Part shown: positions 1,875-11,906 of the stretch, in pieces
How positions within the stretch are numbered: position 1 is the first letter of the stretch
Layout: every line of letters begins with the position of its first letter
Assembly (NCBI GenBank): GCA_964541945.1
Contig: CAZISE010000003.1
Span: 115,649-179,648, forward strand
From: an uncultured Verrucomicrobiota bacterium
GTDB taxonomy: Bacteria > Verrucomicrobiota > Verrucomicrobiia > Palsa-1439
Reading direction: 5' to 3'
DNA: 64,000 nucleotides
The notes under the pieces: generated by a model
What the model saw: only the letters and a program-made list of their open reading frames with translations
Told to the model about the DNA's origin: nothing
The model's database searches: none
Translations under genes and position numbers: made by a program

Positions 1875-4800
1875 ATGACCGAGAAACTTTTACGCGAAGG
1901 ACAAATCCTCAAAGGGCCGTTGTTCAACGAACCGGTGCGGGTCGAGACAGTAACGGTCAACGGAACGGATTCGTGGACGATCGGGTGCGTGGGGCTGCAC
2001 TCGGAAAAGTTCCGTCGCGTCACGCTTTCCGGGAATGACCTGAAATCGCTAACAATTCTTCCGGAGATTTTCACCTTCGACGGCAACGGGCGACAATTGC
2101 GGTTGGGCATTCAAGCCTACAGCTTGGGAATCGCCTACGAATTCGATCCGTACTTCGGCCTTTCGATCTCGCGAGTGGATCCGCTGCCACACCAACTGGA
2201 GGCGGTCTATGATTATTTGCTGAAACTGGCGCGTGTGCGTTTCCTGCTGGCCGACGACGCCGGTGCCGGCAAAACCATCATGGCAGGGTTGTTGATCCGC
2301 GAACTGAAACTGCGCGGCCTGGCGGAACGCATCCTGGTCGTTTGCCCGTCCAACCTCACGTTTCAGTGGCAGCGCGAGTTGAAAGAAAAATTCGACGAAA
2401 AGTTTCTCGTCATCAAAGGCGGCGACATCCGCGAACAGTTCGGCGTCAACCAGTGGATGGAACGCAACCAGGCCATTACATCGCTCGACCTCGCCAAACG
2501 CGCCGAAATTCTGCCCGGCCTGCGCCAGACCCACTGGGATTTGGTCATTGTGGACGAAGCGCATCGGATGTCGGCTGCGGATGAAACCCACAAGAGTCTG
2601 CGCTACAAACTGGGCGAATTACTCCGCGACAGCGCGGATCATTTGCTGCTGCTCACCGCCACCCCGCACAAGGGCGACCCGGTCAACTTCACCCTGTTCC
2701 TGCAACTGCTCGACGCCGATGCCTATGCGGATGTGCGATCCATCCGGCAGGCTATGACACAGCAACGCGCGCCGTTTTATTTGCGCCGCACCAAAGAGGC
2801 AATGGTCTATTTCCCCGAGCGGCAGCCGGACGGCAAATGGATGGCGCGGAAAATCTTCACAAAACGAATCACTCGCACGGTCGCTTTCATGCTCGATGGT
2901 CCTGAATTTGACTTGTACCGCGCCGTCACCGGGTTCATCAAGGCGCAGAGCGCAAAAGCCGCCGCCCAAGGCGATGATCTGCGAGCGCGGGCGGTCGGAT
3001 TCTTGATGTCGCTGTACCAACGACGACTGGCATCGAGCACCCATGCGCTCCGTCGTTCGCTGGAAAATCGCGCCAAACGCCTCGCCGACGCCCTGAAAAA
3101 TGCCCAGCAACTGGCCGCGCTGGCACCGCCAGAGGTACCCAGCGAAGAAGAACTCGAAGAAATGGAAGAATCCGAGCGTGAGCGGCTGGAGGAACAACTG
3201 GAAGCCGTCACGCTCGCCGGCAATGCCGAACAGGTGCGCGACGAGATCCATCAATTGAACGAACTGGCCGCCCAAGCCCGCGCCGTCGAGGAGACACTGG
3301 CCGAGGCCAAGCTGGCACGCTTGAAGGAACTGCTGCAGCAGGAAGGCTTCTTTGACCATCCCACCAAACGGTTGCTGATTTTCACCGAGTACAAAGACAC
3401 GCTCGACTATCTGATGGCACGACTCAAGGAGTGGGGGTTTAGCGTCGGATGCATCCACGGCGGCATGAAACCCGGTTCACGGGATGAACCCGGCACGCGC
3501 CTCCATGCCGAGCAACAATTCAAAGACGGCGTGATTCAAATCCTGGTTGCCACCGAGGCGGCTGGCGAGGGCATCAACCTTCAGTGCTGTCACATCCTGT
3601 TCAACTACGATATCCCGTGGAACCCCAACCGACTCGAACAACGCATGGGCCGCATCCACCGCTACGGTCAGCTCCACGACTGCCTCATCTTCAATTTCGT
3701 CGCCAGCAACACCATCGAAGGCCACGTCTTGCGCCGTCTCCTGGAAAAATTGCAGGAAATCCGCAACGCGCTCGACAACGACGCCGTGTTCAACGTCGTC
3801 GGCGAAGTTCTGCCCGCCGCTCACATCGAGCGGGTCTTGCGCGATTACTACGCCGGCAAACTCGGCGATGCCGACCTGGAAGATCGCTTGCTCCGCAATG
3901 TGGACGAGCAACATTTCCGCGCCATCTGCGAAAACGCCCTAGAAGGGCTGGCAGCCAAGAAACTCAACCTGGAAATGCTCATCGAACGCCGCGCACGCGC
4001 CCAGGAACGCCGCGTCGTCCCCGAAACCATCGCCCGTTTCCTGCGAGAAAGCGCCGAAACCGTGGCGCTCACCCTCAAACCCGTCGAGTCGCTACCGCAT
4101 ACTTTCGAAGGCATCAAGACGCCCACCGCGCTCAAGCGCTACGAGACCGACTCGACCTGGAAATTGCCGGTACTGGCCCTCAAATACCCGCGCCTCTCGA
4201 CCGACCGCGAGACCGCTGAAAAACACAATCTCGAATGGGTCACACCCGGTCACCCGTTGTTCGAGGCGTTACGCCGACACGCCCTCGAATCCGCCCGCGA
4301 ACCCTTCAGCAAGGGCGCGTGTTTCTACTCGCTCCAACACGATGCGCCCACCCGGCTCGATTTCTACCGCGCCCGCGTCGTGGACGGACTCGGCCAGGTT
4401 ATCCACGAACGACTGTATGCGGTCGAACTTTCTGAGACGGGCGCGCCCCGGCTGCGCGAGCCGGGCGTGATCGGCGACTTCGTGCCCGCCAACCCGCCGC
4501 CAATGTTGCCGGCGGTTGCCGAACTGCCTGAAGCAACCGCATGGTTCAACACGCAAGTGTTGACTGGTTTCCTCGAAGAAGTCCGCGTCGAACGCATTGC
4601 GGAGTTGGACCGTATCGCCAACCATGTCGAGTTGTCCCTGACCGAGCTGCTTCAGAAAGCCGACGAGGAAATCGGCAGGGCACAGGAGGCCATTGATCGT
4701 GGCGAACAAGGTGCCGAGGGGCGCCTGGCGCAGGCCGAAGAACGACACGACAAGTTACTCCAACGCCGCGAGCAACGCCGCCAGGAACTGCAACAGCAGC

Positions 4801-5300
4801 GCTCCCTGACCTTGCAAAGCGTCGAACGAATCACCTCCGTCCTCATCCTGCCTCACCCGGAACGACAAGCCGCCGATGTGGCTCATCTGCGGCCTAACCC
4901 GCAAACCGAAGCCGCAGCCATGCAAACCGTGATCGCCTACGAACGCAACCACGGCCGACACGTCGAGGACGTGCACGAGAAAAATCTCGGCTACGATTTG
5001 ACCAGCCTCGACCCGCAGTCCGGCGAACTGCGCCTGATTGAGGTCAAGGGACTGGGCGCTGCCAGCGGTCGCGTCCTGCTCACACCCAACGAACGGCGCG
5101 TCGCCGAGGATCGGCGCGATTGTTACTGGCTGTATGTCGTTACCCACTGCGACACCACGCCGCAGTTGCAGGAGCCGATCAAGGACCCGGCTCGGTTCCC
5201 GTGGCACGTGGTCAGCAAGGTTGAGCATTACTGGCTGGAAGTGAAAGCCCTGACCCAACCCATGCAGGTGCGGGAAACGCCCGAAGGCTACCACCCATGA
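1875..5300 (+). CDS. SNF2-family (DEAH) helicase/ATPase with C-terminal DUF3883 domain; first gene of defence-like operon
   Basis: ATG start. Walker A DAGAGKT, DEAH box VIVDEAHRM, motif III LLLTATPHKGD, helicase-C ILVATEAAGEGINLQ and QRMGRIHRYGQ. The C-terminal ~120 aa (VIAYERNHGRHVEDVHEKNLGYDLTSLDPQSGELRLIEVKGLGAASGRVLLTPNERRVAEDRRDCYWLYVVTHC) matches the DUF3883/NO-VEIN C-terminal signature. Confidence 0.85.
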   Translation: MTEKLLREGQILKGPLFNEPVRVETVTVNGTDSWTIGCVGLHSEKFRRVTLSGNDLKSLTILPEIFTFDGNGRQLRLGIQAYSLGIAYEFDPYFGLSISRVDPLPHQLEAVYDYLLKLARVRFLLADDAGAGKTIMAGLLIRELKLRGLAERILVVCPSNLTFQWQRELKEKFDEKFLVIKGGDIREQFGVNQWMERNQAITSLDLAKRAEILPGLRQTHWDLVIVDEAHRMSAADETHKSLRYKLGELLRDSADHLLLLTATPHKGDPVNFTLFLQLLDADAYADVRSIRQAMTQQRAPFYLRRTKEAMVYFPERQPDGKWMARKIFTKRITRTVAFMLDGPEFDLYRAVTGFIKAQSAKAAAQGDDLRARAVGFLMSLYQRRLASSTHALRRSLENRAKRLADALKNAQQLAALAPPEVPSEEELEEMEESERERLEEQLEAVTLAGNAEQVRDEIHQLNELAAQARAVEETLAEAKLARLKELLQQEGFFDHPTKRLLIFTEYKDTLDYLMARLKEWGFSVGCIHGGMKPGSRDEPGTRLHAEQQFKDGVIQILVATEAAGEGINLQCCHILFNYDIPWNPNRLEQRMGRIHRYGQLHDCLIFNFVASNTIEGHVLRRLLEKLQEIRNALDNDAVFNVVGEVLPAAHIERVLRDYYAGKLGDADLEDRLLRNVDEQHFRAICENALEGLAAKKLNLEMLIERRARAQERRVVPETIARFLRESAETVALTLKPVESLPHTFEGIKTPTALKRYETDSTWKLPVLALKYPRLSTDRETAEKHNLEWVTPGHPLFEALRRHALESAREPFSKGACFYSLQHDAPTRLDFYRARVVDGLGQVIHERLYAVELSETGAPRLREPGVIGDFVPANPPPMLPAVAELPEATAWFNTQVLTGFLEEVRVERIAELDRIANHVELSLTELLQKADEEIGRAQEAIDRGEQGAEGRLAQAEERHDKLLQRREQRRQELQQQRSLTLQSVERITSVLILPHPERQAADVAHLRPNPQTEAAAMQTVIAYERNHGRHVEDVHEKNLGYDLTSLDPQSGELRLIEVKGLGAASGRVLLTPNERRVAEDRRDCYWLYVVTHCDTTPQLQEPIKDPARFPWHVVSKVEHYWLEVKALTQPMQVRETPEGYHP

Positions 5301-6118
5301 CATCCGACCGATCAGACCGATCCGACCAATCTGACCGATCACCGCGCAAGCGCCTCCGACCCAGCGGCGGTTACCGCAACACCGCCAGTTTCCAGACCGC
5401 CACGATCATCTACGATGCCACCTACTGGTTCTGCGAAAAGTTCCTCGACCCGCGTTCGCGCACGGTGGACCAGATGGTGCAAGCCGCGCGCAGTGGCCGG
5501 CAAAACATTGCCGAAGCCAGCCGCGCCGCCGCCGCTTCTTCACAGACCGAGCTGCGCCTGCTCAACACCGCCCGCGCCAGCCTCGAGGAGCTGCTGCTGG
5601 ACTACGAAGATTACCTGCGCCACCGCCACCTGCCACAATGGTCGCCCGACAACCCCGAAGCGCGCGCCGTGAGGGACCTGGCGGCGCGAATGCGCCGCCA
5701 ACGCGACCAGTCTGATCAGTCCGATCCGCCTGATCCGCCTGATCAGCAGTACCGCGCGCTCTGGGCGCTCTACGCCCCGTGGCTGGAGCACGCCGACCCG
5801 GCCGTTCGCGCCAACGCGCTGATCTGCCTCATCCACCAAGCCAATTACCTGCTCGACCAGCAAATCAACGCGCTGGAGCAGGCCTTCGTGGAAGACGGCG
5901 GCTACAGCGAGCAACTCGCCGCCGCTCGGCTGGCGCACCGCGCCAAGCGCGATCAGACCGATCAGACCGATCAGGCCGATCCGTCCGATCGCATCCCCCG
6001 TTGCCCCCAATGCGGCAAGCTGATGGCGCTGCGCACCGCCAAAACCGGCAAAAAAGCCGGCAGCCAGTTCTGGGGCTGCACCGGCTACCCCGATTGCAAA
6101 GGAACCGCCCCACTATGA
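5297..6118 (+). CDS. small four-helix-bundle (PF05635-like) protein fused to a topoisomerase-type C4 zinc ribbon; contains three 9-bp repeat arrays
   Basis: The ATG overlaps the helicase stop (ATGA) and the stop overlaps the methylase start (ATGA). The 4HB-like segments are YRNTASFQTATIIYDATYWFCEKF, QMVQAARSGRQNIAEASR and ARASLEELLLDYEDYL. The C-terminal segment CPQCGKLMALRTAKTGKKAGSQFWGCTGYPDCKGT matches zf-C4_Topoisom. SDRSDRS/DQSDQSDPPDPPD/DQTDQTDQADPSD insertions come from the 9-mer arrays. Confidence 0.6.
   Translation: MTSDRSDRSDQSDRSPRKRLRPSGGYRNTASFQTATIIYDATYWFCEKFLDPRSRTVDQMVQAARSGRQNIAEASRAAAASSQTELRLLNTARASLEELLLDYEDYLRHRHLPQWSPDNPEARAVRDLAARMRRQRDQSDQSDPPDPPDQQYRALWALYAPWLEHADPAVRANALICLIHQANYLLDQQINALEQAFVEDGGYSEQLAAARLAHRAKRDQTDQTDQADPSDRIPRCPQCGKLMALRTAKTGKKAGSQFWGCTGYPDCKGTAPL
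5303..5341. repeat. 9-bp GATC-containing tandem repeat array 1 (4 units, consensus TCNGACCGA/GACCGATCN), in-frame, encodes (SDR)n
   Basis: Units tccgaccga / tcagaccga / tccgaccaa / tctgaccga read directly from sequence, at the helicase/small-gene junction. Confidence 0.8.
5705..5746. repeat. 9-bp GATC tandem repeat array 2 (about 4 units), encodes DQSDQSDPPDPPD
   Basis: tctgatcag / tccgatccg / cctgatccg / cctgatcag. Inserted in the middle of the four-helix-bundle domain. Confidence 0.8.
5951..5992. repeat. 9-bp GATC tandem repeat array 3 (4.5 units), encodes DQTDQTDQADPSD
   Basis: gatcagacc / gatcagacc / gatcaggcc / gatccgtcc / gatcgc. Sits between the 4HB domain and the Zn ribbon. Confidence 0.8.
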
Positions 6119-9108
6119 TCCCTCGCAACTGTAAACGACTCGCCGAACTCGATTTCCCCATCGCCACTGTGGGAAAACATGCGATTCGAGAGAAGCCAAT
6201 TGTTCGTAACCATCCACAGTCAATCCAGCAATGGTGGGCACGCCGGCCTCTCGCGGCTTGCCGGGCCGTGCTGCTCGGCCTGCTGTTGCCCGACCCGGCC
6301 GATCCGCTCTGCCCGGCGGAGTTCAAGAGCAAAGCGCGCGAGCTGCTCCGCAAAGTGCCCGGCCGACTCGGCAACACCGACCTCGACCTGCGCAATGCGC
6401 TGCTGAAGTTCATCGGCGATTTCGCCAACTGGGAACTTTCCTCGCACGCCACTTACCTCGAAGTCGGGCGCGGCCTGGTCAAAGCGGCTCACCCGGAAGA
6501 ACCGCCGCTTGTGGTTGACCCGTTTGCCGGCGGCGGCTCGATCCCGCTGGAAGCGTTGCGGCTCGGGTGCGAAGCGTTTGCCTCCGACCTCAACCCCGTT
6601 GCCTGCCTGATCCTGAAGGTGATGCTTGAAGATATTCCCCGGCACGGCCCGCAACTGGCCGAGGAACTGCGGCGTGTCGGCGCGCAAATCAAGGCGGCGG
6701 CCGAACGCGAATTGGCGCAGTATTACCCGGCGGATCCGGATGGGGCGCGGCCGATTGCCTACCTGTGGGCGCGGACGGTGCGGTGCGAATCGCCGCAGTG
6801 CGGCGCCGAAATCCCGCTGGTGCGCTCGTTCTGGCTCTGCAAAAAGACCGACCGCAAACGGGCGCTGCGCCTGGTGCGAGCCGACCGATCCGACCGATCG
6901 GACGGATCCGACCGATCCGTTCGATTCGAGCTGTTCACCCCTGCCCGCGATGACGAGGTGCCGCCCGGCACGGTCTCACGCGCCAATGCAACCTGCCCGT
7001 GTTGCGGTGTGGTGTTGCCGGCGGCGCGGGTGCGGGCGCAACTGGCCGCCCAACGCGGCGGCGCCGATGTGCTCTTTGACGAGCGCGGGCGACGAATCGG
7101 CGGTGCGCGGCTGCTGGCGGTGGTGACACTCAAGGACGGCGAGCCGGGCCGACACTACCGGCTGGCCACCGACCGCGATTACGAACCGGTCTGGCTAGCC
7201 CAACAAGCCGTCGCCCAACTCCCACCCGGCACCGTGCCGGATGAGCCAACGCCCGCCGGTGGCGGGGCAGGAGCAGGCCGCGCCTTCAGTGTCCAACGCT
7301 ACGGCATGCTCCAGTGGGGCGACCTCTTCACCGCCAGACAAAAACTAACTTTGGCTACTCTGGGATCGCTCGTGGGCAGACTGGAAAATGAGATTCATCG
7401 CAAACTTGTGGCATTCGTTCTTTCACGCCTTTCGGATCGACTTGCATCATTGCTCGGCTGGGACGTGGGGGGGGAGAAGTTAGGGCATGTATTTAACAGA
7501 CAAGCGCTCCCAATTGTGTGGGATTACACCGAAGGAGCACCCTTTGCCGACGCGAGCGGGAGCTACCAGAACGTTAAGGAACAAATTGAGGGTGCCGTTG
7601 ACTCTGTTAGTTCCCTCACCCGATCAGGACAAGCCCAAATTGCCGACGCCTGTGCCTCGCCCTTGCCGGATGATGCCTGCAGCGTCTGGTTCACCGATCC
7701 GCCCTACTACGATGCCGTGCCGTATGCCGATCTGTCGGATTTCTTCTTTGTCTGGCTGAAGCGGACATTGCCGGGTCATCCGTTGTTGCGTGACCCGTTC
7801 GACCCGGCCAACCCGCTGACGCCAAAAACACGCGAAGCGGTGCAGGACGAAGTCAAAGAAGCCGACGGTCGCCCGAAGGACAAGGGATGGTTTGAAGAAA
7901 CGATGGCCAAAGCGTTTGCCGAAGGCCGGCGCGTGCTCAAGGACGACGGCATCGGTTGTGTCGTGTTCGCCCACAAAACCACCGAAGGCTGGGAAGCGTT
8001 GTTGTCGGGCATGATCCGCGGCGGCTGGACAATTACCGGTTCGTGGCCGATTGCCACCGAGCGGCCGGGACGGCTGCGCTCGCAAGCGTCCGCTGCACTG
8101 GCGACCAGCGTCCATCTGATTTGCCGGCCGCGCACGGACGACGCGGTGGGCGATTGGAGCGCCGTGTCGCGTGAACTGCCGCAACGTGTGCGGGATTGGA
8201 TGGAGCGGTTGGAGCGTGAAGGCGTGCGCGGTGCTGACCTGGTGTTTGCCTGCATTGGTCCTGCGCTGGAGATTTACAGCCGCTACGCCAAAGTGGTGGA
8301 CGCCGAAGACCGGGAAATCCCGTTGGGCGGCGACTCCGAAGCGCGCGAGCCGCATCGGCGCGGTTTTCTGGCTTACGTCTGGGAAGTGGTCGGCCGCATT
8401 GCGCTGGAGCAGGTGCTCGGCAGCGCCGAAGCACGCGCCACCAACGGCGTTGCCGGCGCGCTGGAAGAAGACGCCCGGTTGACCGCGCTGTTTCTCTGGG
8501 CGCTGCAAACCACTGCCGGCGATCCGCCCGATCTGACCGATCCGACCGATCCGCCCGATCCGTCCGATCAGGAGGAAGAGGAAGCCCCCAAACCTGCGCG
8601 CGGGTTCTCGCTGGTCTTCGACGTGGTGCGCCGGTTCGCCCAGCCGCTGGGGATTCACCTGCCGGACTGGGAAGGGCGGATCATCGCCACCGAGAAAGGC
8701 GTGGTGCGGCTGTTGCCGGTGCATGACCGGGCCGAGCAGTTGTTCGGCAAAGAGGGCGCGCAGGCGATTGCTTCCCGGCTGGAACGGGAAACGCAAGGCG
8801 ACGCGCAGTTGGTGTTGTTCCCCGACCGGCAAGAGGCCGCCGCGCCGCGGGTGCAGGGCCGGCGCCGGCGTAGTCGCGGCGAGGAGGCCGTTGCCACGCA
8901 GCGTGCCGCGACGACGCTGGATCGGGTGCACGCGGCGATGCTGTTGCAGGCCAGCGGCAAGTCGAATGCGTTGCGGGCGATGTTGCAAGCTGAGCGCGAG
9001 CGCGGTCCGGAGTTTCTGCGCTTGGCGAACGCGCTCTCAGCGTTGTATCCTCGCGACAGCGAGGAAAAACGGCTGCTGGACGCCATGCTATTGGCCATGC
9101 CCCGCTAA
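6115..9108 (+). CDS. DUF1156-family Zn-ribbon N6-adenine/N4-cytosine class DNA methyltransferase (DPPY motif)
   Basis: The true start is ATG at 6115 (M I P R N C), overlapping the upstream stop. The listed 5779 start is a frame-overlapping extension. The DUF1156 N-terminus is FPIATVGKHAIREKPIVRNHPQSIQQWWARRPLAACRAVLL. SAM motif I is VVDPFAGGGSIPLEALRLGC and catalytic motif IV is WFTDPPYYDAVPY. The Zn ribbon is CESPQCG...CPCCG. It contains two 9-mer arrays. Confidence 0.8.
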   Translation: MIPRNCKRLAELDFPIATVGKHAIREKPIVRNHPQSIQQWWARRPLAACRAVLLGLLLPDPADPLCPAEFKSKARELLRKVPGRLGNTDLDLRNALLKFIGDFANWELSSHATYLEVGRGLVKAAHPEEPPLVVDPFAGGGSIPLEALRLGCEAFASDLNPVACLILKVMLEDIPRHGPQLAEELRRVGAQIKAAAERELAQYYPADPDGARPIAYLWARTVRCESPQCGAEIPLVRSFWLCKKTDRKRALRLVRADRSDRSDGSDRSVRFELFTPARDDEVPPGTVSRANATCPCCGVVLPAARVRAQLAAQRGGADVLFDERGRRIGGARLLAVVTLKDGEPGRHYRLATDRDYEPVWLAQQAVAQLPPGTVPDEPTPAGGGAGAGRAFSVQRYGMLQWGDLFTARQKLTLATLGSLVGRLENEIHRKLVAFVLSRLSDRLASLLGWDVGGEKLGHVFNRQALPIVWDYTEGAPFADASGSYQNVKEQIEGAVDSVSSLTRSGQAQIADACASPLPDDACSVWFTDPPYYDAVPYADLSDFFFVWLKRTLPGHPLLRDPFDPANPLTPKTREAVQDEVKEADGRPKDKGWFEETMAKAFAEGRRVLKDDGIGCVVFAHKTTEGWEALLSGMIRGGWTITGSWPIATERPGRLRSQASAALATSVHLICRPRTDDAVGDWSAVSRELPQRVRDWMERLEREGVRGADLVFACIGPALEIYSRYAKVVDAEDREIPLGGDSEAREPHRRGFLAYVWEVVGRIALEQVLGSAEARATNGVAGALEEDARLTALFLWALQTTAGDPPDLTDPTDPPDPSDQEEEEAPKPARGFSLVFDVVRRFAQPLGIHLPDWEGRIIATEKGVVRLLPVHDRAEQLFGKEGAQAIASRLERETQGDAQLVLFPDRQEAAAPRVQGRRRRSRGEEAVATQRAATTLDRVHAAMLLQASGKSNALRAMLQAERERGPEFLRLANALSALYPRDSEEKRLLDAMLLAMPR
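6883..6927. repeat. 9-bp GATC tandem repeat array 4 (5 units), encodes DRSDRSDGSDRSVRF inside the methylase Zn-ribbon region
   Basis: gaccgatcc / gaccgatcg / gacggatcc / gaccgatcc / gttcgattc. Confidence 0.8.
8521..8571. repeat. 9-bp GATC tandem repeat array 5 (5.5 units), encodes DPPDLTDPTDPPDPSDQ linker in the methylase
   Basis: gatccgccc / gatctgacc / gatccgacc / gatccgccc / gatccgtcc / gatcag. It uses a different codon phase (DPT) from arrays 1 and 4 (DRS). Confidence 0.8.
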
Positions 9109-9110
9109 AA

Positions 9111-9155
9111 CCGATCCGCCCGATCCGACGGATCCGACTGATAGGACTGATCATG
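9111..9155. repeat. 9-bp GATC tandem repeat array 6 (about 5 units) filling the methylase–ATPase intergenic spacer and running into the ATPase start codon
   Basis: ccgatccgc / ccgatccga / cggatccga / ctgatagga / ctgatcATG. Non-coding except for the last unit. Confidence 0.75.
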
Positions 9156-11906
9156 GAACCCTGGTACAAAATCGTGACGCCGCGCAAAGAAGTCCGGGAG
9201 GGACGATCGTTCAACCCGGACGATTTTGCCATTCATCTGGAACAGGTCGTGGCGGGCAAAGCGCCGGAGGATTACCGGGATGCCCGGCAGTTTTTCGCGC
9301 GGACATGCTGGACGAGCGCCCTGCGCTTGCACGCCGGCATGGTTCTCCGCCGACTGGACGGCAAAACCGAGAACACCTCCCCGGTGATGACGTTGGTGAC
9401 ACAGTTCGGCGGCGGCAAAACCCACACGCTGACGGCGTTGTATCACCTGGCCACAAGCGGCAAAAAAGCCGCCAGCTACCACGGAGTCGAGGACTTGCTC
9501 AAGGAAGCCCGGCTTAGCGAAGTGCCGCAAGCGCGGGTCGCCGTGTTCGTGGGCAACGCCTGGGATCCGCACGAGGGACGCGAGACGCCGTGGATGGATG
9601 TTGCCCGGCAACTGGCGGGCGAGAAGGGCGTAGCATTGCTCGGCAAAGACGCCAAGACCACACCGCCCGGCACCGAGGCGTTGGGCCGGATTTTTGAGGC
9701 GGCCGGCGGGCCGGTGTTGATTCTGTGCGATGAAGTGCTGAATTTCGTCAACCGACATCGCAAACTGGCTGAGCCGTTCCACGCCTTTATCCAGAACCTG
9801 ACGGTCGCCATGACCGGCACGACGCACGGGGCGGCGATGATCAGCCTGCCACGCAGTCAGGTGGAGATGACCGAGTGGGATGCGCAGTGGCAGGACAAGA
9901 TCACCAAGGTCGTTAAACGGGTTGCCAAGGATTTGATTGCCAACGACGAGACGGAAATCAGCGAGGTGGTGCGTCGGCGGTTGTTCGAGGACTTGGGCGA
10001 CGAAAAGATTCTCAAGACGGTGGCCCGAACGTTTGCCCATTGGTGTTTCGAGCGTCGGGCGCAGTTGCCGCCCGAATGGACGGCGGTGGACGTGGCAGCG
10101 ACGGAAGCGAAAGCGAAAGAGTTTTTGCGAAATCGGTTTGAGCGTTGTTATCCGTTTCATCCAGCCACGTTGTCGGTATTTCAGCGCAAATGGCAGACGC
10201 TGCCGCAGTATCAACAGACCCGTGGCACGCTGGCGATGCTGGCGCAGTGGATTTCGTGGGCCTACCGGAACGGGTTCCAACACGCTCGACGCGAGTCGTT
10301 GATCACCATCGGCTCGGCGCCGTTGGATGTGGCGGAGTTCAAGGCGACGGTGTTGGGTCAACTCGGCGAAGCGCGACTGGCGGCGGCGATTGATACCGAT
10401 ATTGCCGGACCGAACTCGCACTGCCGGGCGCTGGATGCCGACACCCGCGGGCCGCTGCGCGACATTCACCGTCGGGTCGGCACAGCGATTCTGTTCGAGT
10501 CGTCAGGCGGCCAGGTCAACCGGGTGGCGCATTTGCCGGAGTTACGGTTTGCCATCGGCGAGCCGGACGTGGAAACAACCTCGGTGGATAACGCGGCGCA
10601 TGCGTTGGAAGCGCGGGCGTTTTTCATCAGCCGGGTCGGCTCGGACGGCTTCCGCATCTATCACAAGGCGACGATCCGAAAGGCGGTGGGCGACCGTCGG
10701 GCGTCGTTGGACGAGGACAGCGAGATCAAACCGGCGATGCGCAAGCTGGTGGAGACGGAGTTTCGGCGGGGAGCAACCGTGCCGCTGGTGCTGTTTCCCG
10801 CGGATGGCAGCGAAGTGCCGGATTCGCCGCGATTGACCGTGGTGGTGCTGGCTCCCGAAACGGAATGGAGCGGGCAGAACCCATTGCGCGCACAGATCGC
10901 CGAGTGGACGAAGCGGCGGGGCAAATCGGATCGGTTGTATCCGGCGGCGTTGGTGTGGTGCGTGAAAAAGCCCGGCCGAGATTTTCGCGAAAAGGTGGAG
11001 TTGTGGCTGGCGTGGAAACGAGTGGCACGGGAAGTGGCCGACGGCACGCTGGGGGCGGATTACGATAAAGCCGACCGGGCAGAGATTGAGGCCAAGGTTC
11101 GAGCTGCCGAAGAGGAAGCCAAAGACGAAGTTTGGGGCAGCTACCGGTATGTGATTGTAGCGGATGGAACGGAAACCGACGGCCTGAAGGTGATTGATCT
11201 CGGTGCCGGTCACGCCAGTAGCCATGAGACGTTGAGTGGACGGGTGATCCTCGCGTTGAAAACGCAAAGCTTGCTCAACGACTCGGTCGGGGCCGGTTAC
11301 CTCGAACGCAACTGGCCGGCGGCGTTGAAGGAGACGGGTGCATGGCCGTTGTCGGGCTTGCGCCAGAGTTTCCTCAACGGATCGCTGACGCGGCTCCTCG
11401 ATCCCGACGCCGTGCTGCGCGGCAAGATTCCCGAATTCGTGGCCCGGGGCGAGTTCGGTCTCGCTTCCGGGCCGAAACCGGACGGCACCTACGAAACCGT
11501 TTGGTTCGAGCAGCCGATTTCAGCGGATGAAGTCATGTTCGAGCCGAATGTGTTCCTGCTGACCAAAACAAAAGCCAGGGCGCTAAAATCCGGTGCGACA
11601 ACGGTGGTGGTTGTCCCACCCGAATCGCCGAAACCTTCGGAACCGCAACCGAAGCCGGAGCCGGGCAAGGAATCAGGCCCGGCGCAACTGGTGATGTTGA
11701 CCCTCAGTGGCAGTGTGCCACCAGAGGTCTGGAATCGGCTCGGCACCAAAATCCTGCCCAAGCTGAAAACCGGCAACAACCTCAAGGTGGACGTCGCTTT
11801 CACCGTAACCGTCAAAGCCGATGTCGCCAAAAGTCTGCGGCCAGACTTGCAGCAGAGTCTCAATGACCTCGGGATCTCCGACAAAGTGCGGATTTCGGAA
11901 AACTGA
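9153..11906 (+). CDS. DUF499-family P-loop ATPase (defence-associated); last gene of the operon
   Basis: 917 aa. The Walker A region is VMTLVTQFGGGKTHTLTALYHL, which I recognise as the DUF499 signature. There is a Walker B-like LILCDEV. The long C-terminal region lacks other recognisable domains. Confidence 0.75.
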   Translation: MEPWYKIVTPRKEVREGRSFNPDDFAIHLEQVVAGKAPEDYRDARQFFARTCWTSALRLHAGMVLRRLDGKTENTSPVMTLVTQFGGGKTHTLTALYHLATSGKKAASYHGVEDLLKEARLSEVPQARVAVFVGNAWDPHEGRETPWMDVARQLAGEKGVALLGKDAKTTPPGTEALGRIFEAAGGPVLILCDEVLNFVNRHRKLAEPFHAFIQNLTVAMTGTTHGAAMISLPRSQVEMTEWDAQWQDKITKVVKRVAKDLIANDETEISEVVRRRLFEDLGDEKILKTVARTFAHWCFERRAQLPPEWTAVDVAATEAKAKEFLRNRFERCYPFHPATLSVFQRKWQTLPQYQQTRGTLAMLAQWISWAYRNGFQHARRESLITIGSAPLDVAEFKATVLGQLGEARLAAAIDTDIAGPNSHCRALDADTRGPLRDIHRRVGTAILFESSGGQVNRVAHLPELRFAIGEPDVETTSVDNAAHALEARAFFISRVGSDGFRIYHKATIRKAVGDRRASLDEDSEIKPAMRKLVETEFRRGATVPLVLFPADGSEVPDSPRLTVVVLAPETEWSGQNPLRAQIAEWTKRRGKSDRLYPAALVWCVKKPGRDFREKVELWLAWKRVAREVADGTLGADYDKADRAEIEAKVRAAEEEAKDEVWGSYRYVIVADGTETDGLKVIDLGAGHASSHETLSGRVILALKTQSLLNDSVGAGYLERNWPAALKETGAWPLSGLRQSFLNGSLTRLLDPDAVLRGKIPEFVARGEFGLASGPKPDGTYETVWFEQPISADEVMFEPNVFLLTKTKARALKSGATTVVVVPPESPKPSEPQPKPEPGKESGPAQLVMLTLSGSVPPEVWNRLGTKILPKLKTGNNLKVDVAFTVTVKADVAKSLRPDLQQSLNDLGISDKVRISEN

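Follow-up and report, generated by a model that had tools for sequence, protein, structure and literature searches.

PrrC in type Ic restriction-modification (R-M) systems is a classical embedded gene, and proteins of the family PF05635, whose open reading frames (ORFs) were first found in 23S rRNA intervening sequences (IVSs), rank with the most frequent 'hypothetical' passengers of R-M and defence operons. Among the described anti-phage systems is Hma (helicase, methylase, ATPase); 63–66% of its operons carry embedded genes, which belong to hundreds of families and include many defence systems, and insertions have a hotspot at the hmaA-hmaB junction (bioRxiv 10.1101/2024.01.29.577857; PMC11232893). 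The 64,000-nt stretch analysed here (the window; contig CAZISE010000003.1 of an uncultured Verrucomicrobiota bacterium) contains an hma operon in which a gene for a 273-aa four-helix-bundle protein, hereafter FHB, lies between hmaA and hmaB. The reading preferred here, to which we give about even confidence, is that FHB is an autonomous embedded cargo gene at this hotspot, encoding a nucleic-acid binder similar to Avd of diversity-generating retroelements (DGRs), rather than a core component of Hma or its specificity or adapter subunit.

The Hma operon of the window was compared with seven others, six of which (L081–L086) were read gene by gene. The slot between hmaA and hmaB holds FHB in three of the seven (L002, L081 and L082) and other genes in the remaining four, namely MNT/HEPN pairs and a Schlafen-AlbA (SLFN_AlbA_2) ATPase in L083, an NYN nuclease in L086, and uncharacterised proteins of 360 and 318 aa in L084 and L085, respectively. 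The relative L285, which is syntenic with the window (rhomboid - hmaA - FHB - hmaB - hmaC - lon), likewise retains FHB, so that FHB occupies the slot in five Hma operons (the window, L002, L081, L082 and L285). In each of L081–L086, a 4-nt overlap joins the end of the last cargo gene to the ATG of hmaB; since the overlap is identical whatever the cargo, it belongs to the slot and not to FHB. The shared overlaps suggest an exchange of cassettes with precise boundaries, together with obligatory translational coupling of hmaB. The start of hmaB falls at locus position 7001 in L081–L086, except in L082, where it falls at 6444 and where four consecutive genes are chained by 4-nt overlaps.

Two Nitrospira operons, L081 (with FHB) and L084 (without), are 91% identical in HmaA and 87% in HmaC, and this closeness despite different cargo indicates that the slot content is exchanged by recombination. 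Their HmaB proteins are only 77% identical and mosaic: the N-terminus of the L081 protein is L084-like, while the segment after the first site of a nonamer DNA array (GATCNGWCN, described below) resembles the FHB-carrying L002 and L082. The divergence between the two starts near two array sites, where recombination breakpoints are possible. Compared with L285, the window is 98.7% identical in the rhomboid gene and 95–96% in hmaA and hmaC, but only 85.7% in hmaB. The hmaB divergence peaks (59–73% identity; window positions 6100–6299, 7300–7699 and 8500–8699) coincide with the N-terminal DUF1156 region, a central segment and an array-bearing acidic loop, a pattern that would be expected for swapping of a target-recognition region.

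The earlier note on this stretch had proposed that FHB is a candidate DNA-binding regulator, or a specificity or adapter subunit, of the module in which it sits. Such a dedicated Hma role would fit the ATGA overlaps that chain FHB tightly to hmaA and hmaB, its retention in the slot of five Hma operons, the syntenic relative included, and the fact that the copies in Hma contexts are mutual nearest relatives. However, co-occurrence with hmaABC is not obligate: Hma neighbours were found at only two of the 80 best genome loci of the family (L002 and L006), and four of the seven further operons carry other cargo, in keeping with the varied embedded genes of published Hma operons. In addition, 117 of 120 HmaB homologues lack the array signature, the 4-nt overlap with hmaB is common to every cargo gene in the six operons read, FHB has no PADLOC model, and published Hma systems defend without an FHB-like gene (PMC11232893). 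On this distribution, a subunit specific to Hma was rejected, and a dedicated regulator, specificity subunit or adapter is highly improbable; of the earlier proposal, nucleic-acid binding remains plausible, judging from the Topo III-alpha/GRF-like ribbon and the Avd fold described below, and the Hma-specific role is not supported.

To characterise the contexts outside Hma, the neighbours of family members at the best 80 genome loci were clustered and Pfam-scanned. An HsdR-like gene is present upstream at ∼10 loci and an N6_Mtase–HsdS fusion downstream at eight, with both at six; a PLD-SNF2 helicase gene is upstream at four loci, in two of which an Eco57I-like methylase gene follows downstream, and HsdR is downstream at four. 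RAMP (type III CRISPR) and Cas1 genes were also among the neighbours, as were many housekeeping genes, including those for sulfatase, SelO, ribonucleotide reductase and, in Chlorobiaceae, NiFe hydrogenase. FHB is thus nested between hmaA and hmaB and also found in type-I-like, PLD-helicase, CRISPR and non-defence settings. As nearly the same protein (57–92% identity) recurs across >10 phyla in four or more unrelated contexts of R-M-like or CRISPR type, as well as in housekeeping ones, autonomous action on a generic ligand is most likely. In L003 (∼7800–10820) and L008, RAMP-family genes of type III CRISPR-Cas immediately precede the family gene on its strand, and nonamer arrays also occur within these upstream genes; '23S rRNA IVP' is listed among CRISPR-associated domains in a published survey (PMC10910872). 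The Chlorobiaceae members (L025, L032, L046 and L047) lie next to NiFe-hydrogenase genes of the opposite strand and form a cluster by sequence, which looks like vertical inheritance in a non-defence context.

The family is very large, yet very conserved. Among 5.8 billion proteins, FHB has 7,990 matches at E ≤ 1e-3 (clusters at 90% identity), the best 120 of which cover the full length at 69–92% identity and contain the identical Pfam pair; a library reduced by clustering at 50% identity retains just 294 family representatives at E ≤ 1e-30. A one-genome-per-species scan recovered at least 558 encoded relatives from >10 phyla, and the full FHB architecture is maintained across phyla at 57–92% identity. 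The taxa include Verrucomicrobiota, Kiritimatiellia, Planctomycetota, Nitrospirota, Desulfobacterota, Chlorobiaceae, Acidobacteriota, Chloroflexota, Hydrogenedentota, KSB1, Fermentibacteria and methanotrophic Gammaproteobacteria. Many database homologues bear the name 'four helix bundle suffix domain-containing protein' already, and by its match to the dedicated NCBIfam model TIGR04258 (73.7 bits, cut-off 40) FHB is a direct member of this known, annotated family, so the domain fusion that had been described as unusual is in fact common. A literature search found no use of the family name and no discussion of PF05635 in R-M operons. Searches of plasmids (PLSDB, 72,556) and phage records (INPHARED, 50,697) by tblastn yielded zinc-ribbon-only matches and one Prevotella homologue, which is distant, is located on a secondary replicon and has a coiled-coil tail in place of the ribbon. 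No family copy beyond ribbon-only matches was found among the 2.9 million viral contigs of IMG/VR, and BFVD and PHROGs gave ribbon matches only; on these results, carriage on plasmids or phages was rejected.

The profile scans that the earlier note had suggested bore out its description of the protein. The C-terminal ribbon matched PF01396 (Zn_ribbon_Top1) above threshold (aa 235–272, 37.7 bits, gathering cut-off 32), and its four cysteines (C236, C239, C261 and C267) are invariant in 51 homologues, confirming a topoisomerase-type zinc ribbon. The N-terminal bundle, which had been likened to PF05635 proteins, scored below the gathering cut-off of that model (aa 31–99, 24.9 bits, cut-off 33.8) but above that of TIGR02436 (aa 39–100, 27.2 bits, cut-off 24), and it has the Avd fold. 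TIGR04258 covers aa 169–216, C-terminal to the bundle, and is found likewise above cut-off in the L082 homologue. An AlphaFold2 model built with 51 homologues (mean predicted local distance difference test (pLDDT) score 78.8, predicted template modelling (pTM) score 0.70) contains seven helices followed by a three-stranded ribbon, with low confidence restricted to residues 1–20, ∼136–149 and 218–232. The modelled bundle superposes on solved up-down four-helix bundles, with Avd among the folds recovered; the fold search alone gave significant matches, the bundle half having none when its sequence was searched directly against the PDB. The family profile matched the zinc ribbon of Topo III-alpha in the PDB (E 6.6e-6), with weaker matches to GRF fingers, those of NEIL3 and APE2. 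Approximately 80 alignment positions are invariant, including the four cysteines and an RSGRQNIAE-SR stretch, and the ratio of nonsynonymous to synonymous substitution (dN/dS, Nei-Gojobori) is 0.08–0.25 at dS 0.8–2.6 against nine homologues and 0.18 against the syntenic close relative; on this conservation, the FHB gene is real and constrained.

Several features distinguish FHB from its closest structural relatives. It is roughly twice as large as the bundles annotated as '23S rRNA intervening-sequence protein' under PF05635/TIGR02436 (2GSC, XCC0516; 2RLD, BT_0352), to which it adds a helical hairpin, the TIGR04258 suffix helix, the zinc ribbon and three repeat-encoded linkers. Avd (4DWL, 8UB7) has a similar bundle fold but only 10–11% identity and no zinc ribbon; a reverse transcriptase gene as in DGRs is not among the operon neighbours, which are hmaA, hmaB and hmaC only (the search covered the operon and not the rest of the window). 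Some TIGR04258 members, among them a 229-aa protein of Prevotella nigrescens (35% identity), have a coiled-coil tail and neither a zinc ribbon nor nonamer arrays. The C4 ribbons of type IA topoisomerases and GRF zinc fingers bind single-stranded DNA. In comparison with these modules (Topo III-alpha, NEIL3, APE2), FHB matches PF01396 above threshold but has just one ribbon, which a flexible tether joins to a helical bundle, and no catalytic domain. The isoelectric points are 9.7 for the bundle core, 9.6 for the ribbon and 4.1 for the linkers, and 2GSC was deposited with five chains. FHB may be pictured as a basic helical bundle of the Avd kind, oligomeric and probably pentameric, with basic zinc ribbons that would hang from it on flexible acidic tethers; it is predicted to bind nucleic acid, either single-stranded or damaged DNA, or RNA.

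On the preferred reading, FHB is one of many alternative cargo genes of the hmaA-hmaB hotspot, and 'guilt by embedding' would point to an accessory or second-line role related to defence. Embedded genes with defence function have been reported (bioRxiv 10.1101/2024.01.29.577857), and together with the recurrent position of FHB this makes a defence-related accessory role plausible. Like the genes embedded in Hma and the HEC/PDC candidate systems (Payne et al., bioRxiv 10.1101/2024.01.29.577857), FHB occupies the hmaA-hmaB slot and also occurs outside Hma, the two properties from which 'guilt by embedding' is argued, but it is not among the listed families and has no recognisable effector domain (such as a nuclease, ATPase or HEPN domain). 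If it is a defence accessory, it would be a very widespread addition to the embedded immune genes; in annotation, FHB is best labelled embedded cargo and not a fourth Hma subunit. The subfamily is also unusually tractable, given its cross-phylum conservation, nucleic-acid-binding module, recurrent slot between nuclease/helicase and methylase genes, and sequence-defined repeat.

A number of observations weigh against autonomous, defence-related cargo. We know of no PF05635 protein besides Avd with a known function. Approximately 60% of the same-strand neighbours are non-defence genes, which weakens the argument from embedding. Homologues from the same kind of host system group together (Hma copies with one another, and type I copies likewise), indicating long-lived residence in a given system, and the slot between a helicase/nuclease gene and a methylase gene recurs in three system types; both patterns would also fit a functional integration with R-M-like machines. 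Finally, FHB has no model in PADLOC-DB v2, and PF05635 or four-helix proteins are absent from the supplements that list embedded genes (bioRxiv 10.1101/2024.01.29.577857).

The low-confidence linkers of the FHB model harbour DNA repeats. Tandem Repeats Finder and a pattern search of the 64-kb window revealed six arrays of the 9-nt unit GATCNGWCN, all within the hma operon, with 26 of 29 pattern matches falling in 5301–9152 (1.25 expected for the whole window). Three are in FHB, within the linkers at residues 1–20, ∼136–149 and 218–232, and FHB homologues from other phyla have arrays at the same three intragenic sites; those without the N-terminal array begin M-x-K-L-R-P-S-G-G-Y. Two further arrays are in hmaB, and the sixth fills the hmaB-hmaC spacer, where its last, degenerate unit GATAGGACT yields AGGA 9 nt 5′ of the hmaC ATG and may supply the ribosome-binding site of hmaC. 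Because GATC and GWC are both palindromes, the periodic motif is reverse-complement symmetric. Hairpins or cruciforms were considered and rejected (folding z-scores of −2.0 to +0.9, no signal).

Codon usage, tested independently of the GATCNGWCN pattern, shows that the constraint acts on the DNA. Across 83 family genes, the Asp codons within (D-x-x)n runs comprise 367 GAT and 37 GAC, compared with 511 and 572, respectively, in the remainder of these genes; the second codon ends in G in 80% of cases versus 31% overall, and its residue is R, P, Q or L in near-equal numbers, as given by CNG with a free N. A selected acidic peptide is thereby ruled out. The three acidic tethers are by-products of in-frame nonamer DNA arrays, and the acidic insert that the earlier note had described is real, but there are three and they are a DNA-level repeat rather than a protein feature. 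With dS saturated between family genes, persistence of the motif requires either selection acting on the nucleic acid or continual regeneration. Low-complexity stretches of the type 'DRSDRSD / DPTDPTD' in neighbouring proteins are likewise to be read as DNA-repeat insertions, and the DNA-level arrays merit separate study.

An array census around the gene at 83 loci counted 128 arrays inside FHB genes (∼20 per 10 kb), 15 within 150 nt upstream and 25 within 150 nt downstream. The density is 2–4 per 10 kb within 1 kb, ∼1 per 10 kb at 1–3 kb downstream and essentially zero beyond 4 kb, so that arrays are ∼100 times denser in or beside FHB genes than 4 kb away, with a downstream bias; 12 of the 83 genes have none. 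Units per array range from three to five with a mode of four and no preferred value, which does not support a match of five units to a pentamer. Among 120 HmaB homologues, only three contain arrays, all three adjacent to a family member, and the four operons without FHB have none. The nonamer arrays would thus mark the FHB family and its immediate surroundings. They are not exclusive to it, as shown by 52 viral-contig stretches with exact arrays of ≥3.4 units, including Mu-like portal and protease genes, all without a family member, and by metagenome stretches with ≥4.4 units, 12 of 120 of which encode a family member and 108 of which do not. The arrays apparently constitute a broader, undescribed repeat that is strongly concentrated in and around the FHB family; a literature search for the repeat peptides and nonamers returned nothing specific. 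Other in-frame hosts of GATCNGWCN are HmaB loops, type I R-M genes, linkers of non-ribosomal peptide synthetases (NRPSs), MutL, ScpB and Mu-like portal genes, and the repeat occurs in environmental bacteria and prophages (including L001–L083 and L112–L283) with 3–33 units. In L074, a Planctomyces metagenome-assembled genome, a 28-unit array lies at ∼9684–9933, −317 to −68 relative to the family gene, and in the metagenome locus L247 arrays of 25 and 33 units flank the family gene, one on each side.

This concentration raises the question of whether FHB recognises GATCNGWCN arrays in DNA or mRNA near its own gene and so regulates, insulates or marks the operon in cis, for example by coupling or timing methylase and ATPase expression, given that the spacer array reaches the hmaC ATG. 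The peak of array density in the gene, falling to near zero beyond 4 kb with its downstream bias, the confinement of HmaB arrays to FHB-carrying operons and the preservation of the motif at synonymous positions despite saturated dS are all in line with such binding. Yet ∼90% of the sampled metagenome arrays have no family member nearby, Mu-like prophage genes contain clusters of 5–10 arrays without FHB, some family members lack arrays, the 3–5 units show no preferred number, and the HmaB sites, partly shared positions in indel-prone loops, fit shared ancestry as well as repeated seeding; we consider cis-acting array binding quite unlikely. If true, it would be a new protein-repeat system. A broader version, in which FHB and its arrays would form an undescribed protein-repeat pair whose array-recognising oligomer seeds or maintains arrays, or controls or mobilises the host operon, is in our estimation very unlikely; it would offer the first functional handle on the 30-year-old enigma of the PF05635 '23S rRNA IVS protein' and would account for a class of in-frame DNA repeats that is widespread but has gone unreported.

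Alternatively, FHB and its flanking arrays could be a selfish hitch-hiking cassette that propagates itself in the manner of the PF05635 ORFs of 23S rRNA IVSs, spread by homologous recombination through the arrays or conserved host flanks with little or no benefit to the host. The very diverse contexts, housekeeping ones included, would be accounted for in this way, as would the arrays within 150 nt on either side of the gene (28 units upstream in L074), the mosaic HmaB of L081, which diverges from L084 starting near array sites, and the G+C content of the hma operon (1875–11906), which at 62.4% exceeds that of the remaining window (58.3%). On the other hand, profile scans detected no recombinase, transposase or nuclease domain in FHB, the searches found no plasmid or phage copies, grouping by host context implies long residence and low mobility, strong purifying selection extends across the whole protein, and 12 of 83 family members have no arrays. 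A hitch-hiker is accordingly judged unlikely, and embedded cargo with a function of its own remains the preferred reading.

The features of the locus are compiled in Table 1. As the earlier note had it, the 273-aa ORF overlaps both neighbours and lies inside a defence module: its ATG shares the tetranucleotide ATGA (5297–5300) with the stop of the 1141-aa hmaA, its TGA shares ATGA (6115–6118) with the ATG of hmaB, and the flanking genes are HmaA, HmaB and HmaC by PADLOC, at 327–582 bits, where FHB itself matched no PADLOC family at E ≤ 0.1. The hmaB start at 6115 is backed by a 100%-identical database protein of 997 aa (P0121).

Table 1. Genes, domains and nonamer arrays of the hma operon, in window coordinates
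Feature	Positions	Strand	Basis
hmaA, SNF2 helicase with C-terminal NOV_C/DUF3883 nuclease domain	1875..5300	+	PADLOC HmaA 582 bits; Pfam SNF2-rel_dom, Helicase_C, NOV_C
FHB, 273-aa four-helix-bundle + suffix + Topo-type zinc-ribbon protein	5297..6118	+	ORF call, profiles, model, dN/dS
N-terminal array, 4-5 units, read as DRSDRSDQSDRS	5301..5340	.	repeats; model residues 1-20 pLDDT <50
Four-helix bundle core (TIGR02436 / PF05635, aa 39-100), holds invariant RSGRQNIAE-SR motif	5411..5596	+	profiles, alignment, fold search
Middle array, read as DQSDQSDPPDPPDQ, loop between model helices 120-139 and 148-163	5705..5744	.	repeats, model
'Four helix bundle suffix' domain TIGR04258 (aa 169-216)	5801..5944	+	73.7 bits, cut-off 40
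Linker array, read as DQTDQTDQADPSD, tethers zinc ribbon	5951..5990	.	repeats; model pLDDT ~48-65
C4 zinc ribbon, topoisomerase type (aa 235-272; C236, C239, C261, C267)	5999..6112	+	PF01396, cysteines, PDB profile match
hmaB, DUF1156 DNA methyltransferase	6115..9108	+	PADLOC HmaB 339 bits; 100%-identical protein P0121
Array in indel-prone hmaB loop, DRSDRSDGSDRS	6878..6922	.	repeats; absent from 117/120 HmaB homologues
Array in acidic hmaB loop, DPPDLTDPTDPPDPSDQ	8521..8569	.	repeats
Array filling hmaB-hmaC spacer (9109-9152)	9113..9152	.	repeats
hmaC, DUF499 ATPase	9153..11906	+	PADLOC HmaC 327 bits

No sigma-70-like promoter or intrinsic terminator above shuffled expectation was found inside 1875–11906, and a single promoter-like site is present at 1695–1723, 5′ of hmaA; with the overlapping ATGA tetranucleotides, this indicates that the four genes are read as one operon. 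As read from its sequence, FHB is a genuine gene that is co-transcribed with the hma genes and translationally chained to both neighbours by the ATGA overlaps. A search for known RNA families in the operon found none. The hma operon is flanked by genes for a rhomboid protease and a Lon protease, oriented convergently or divergently to it, and these genes, together with the contrast in G+C content, are consistent with a horizontally acquired island.

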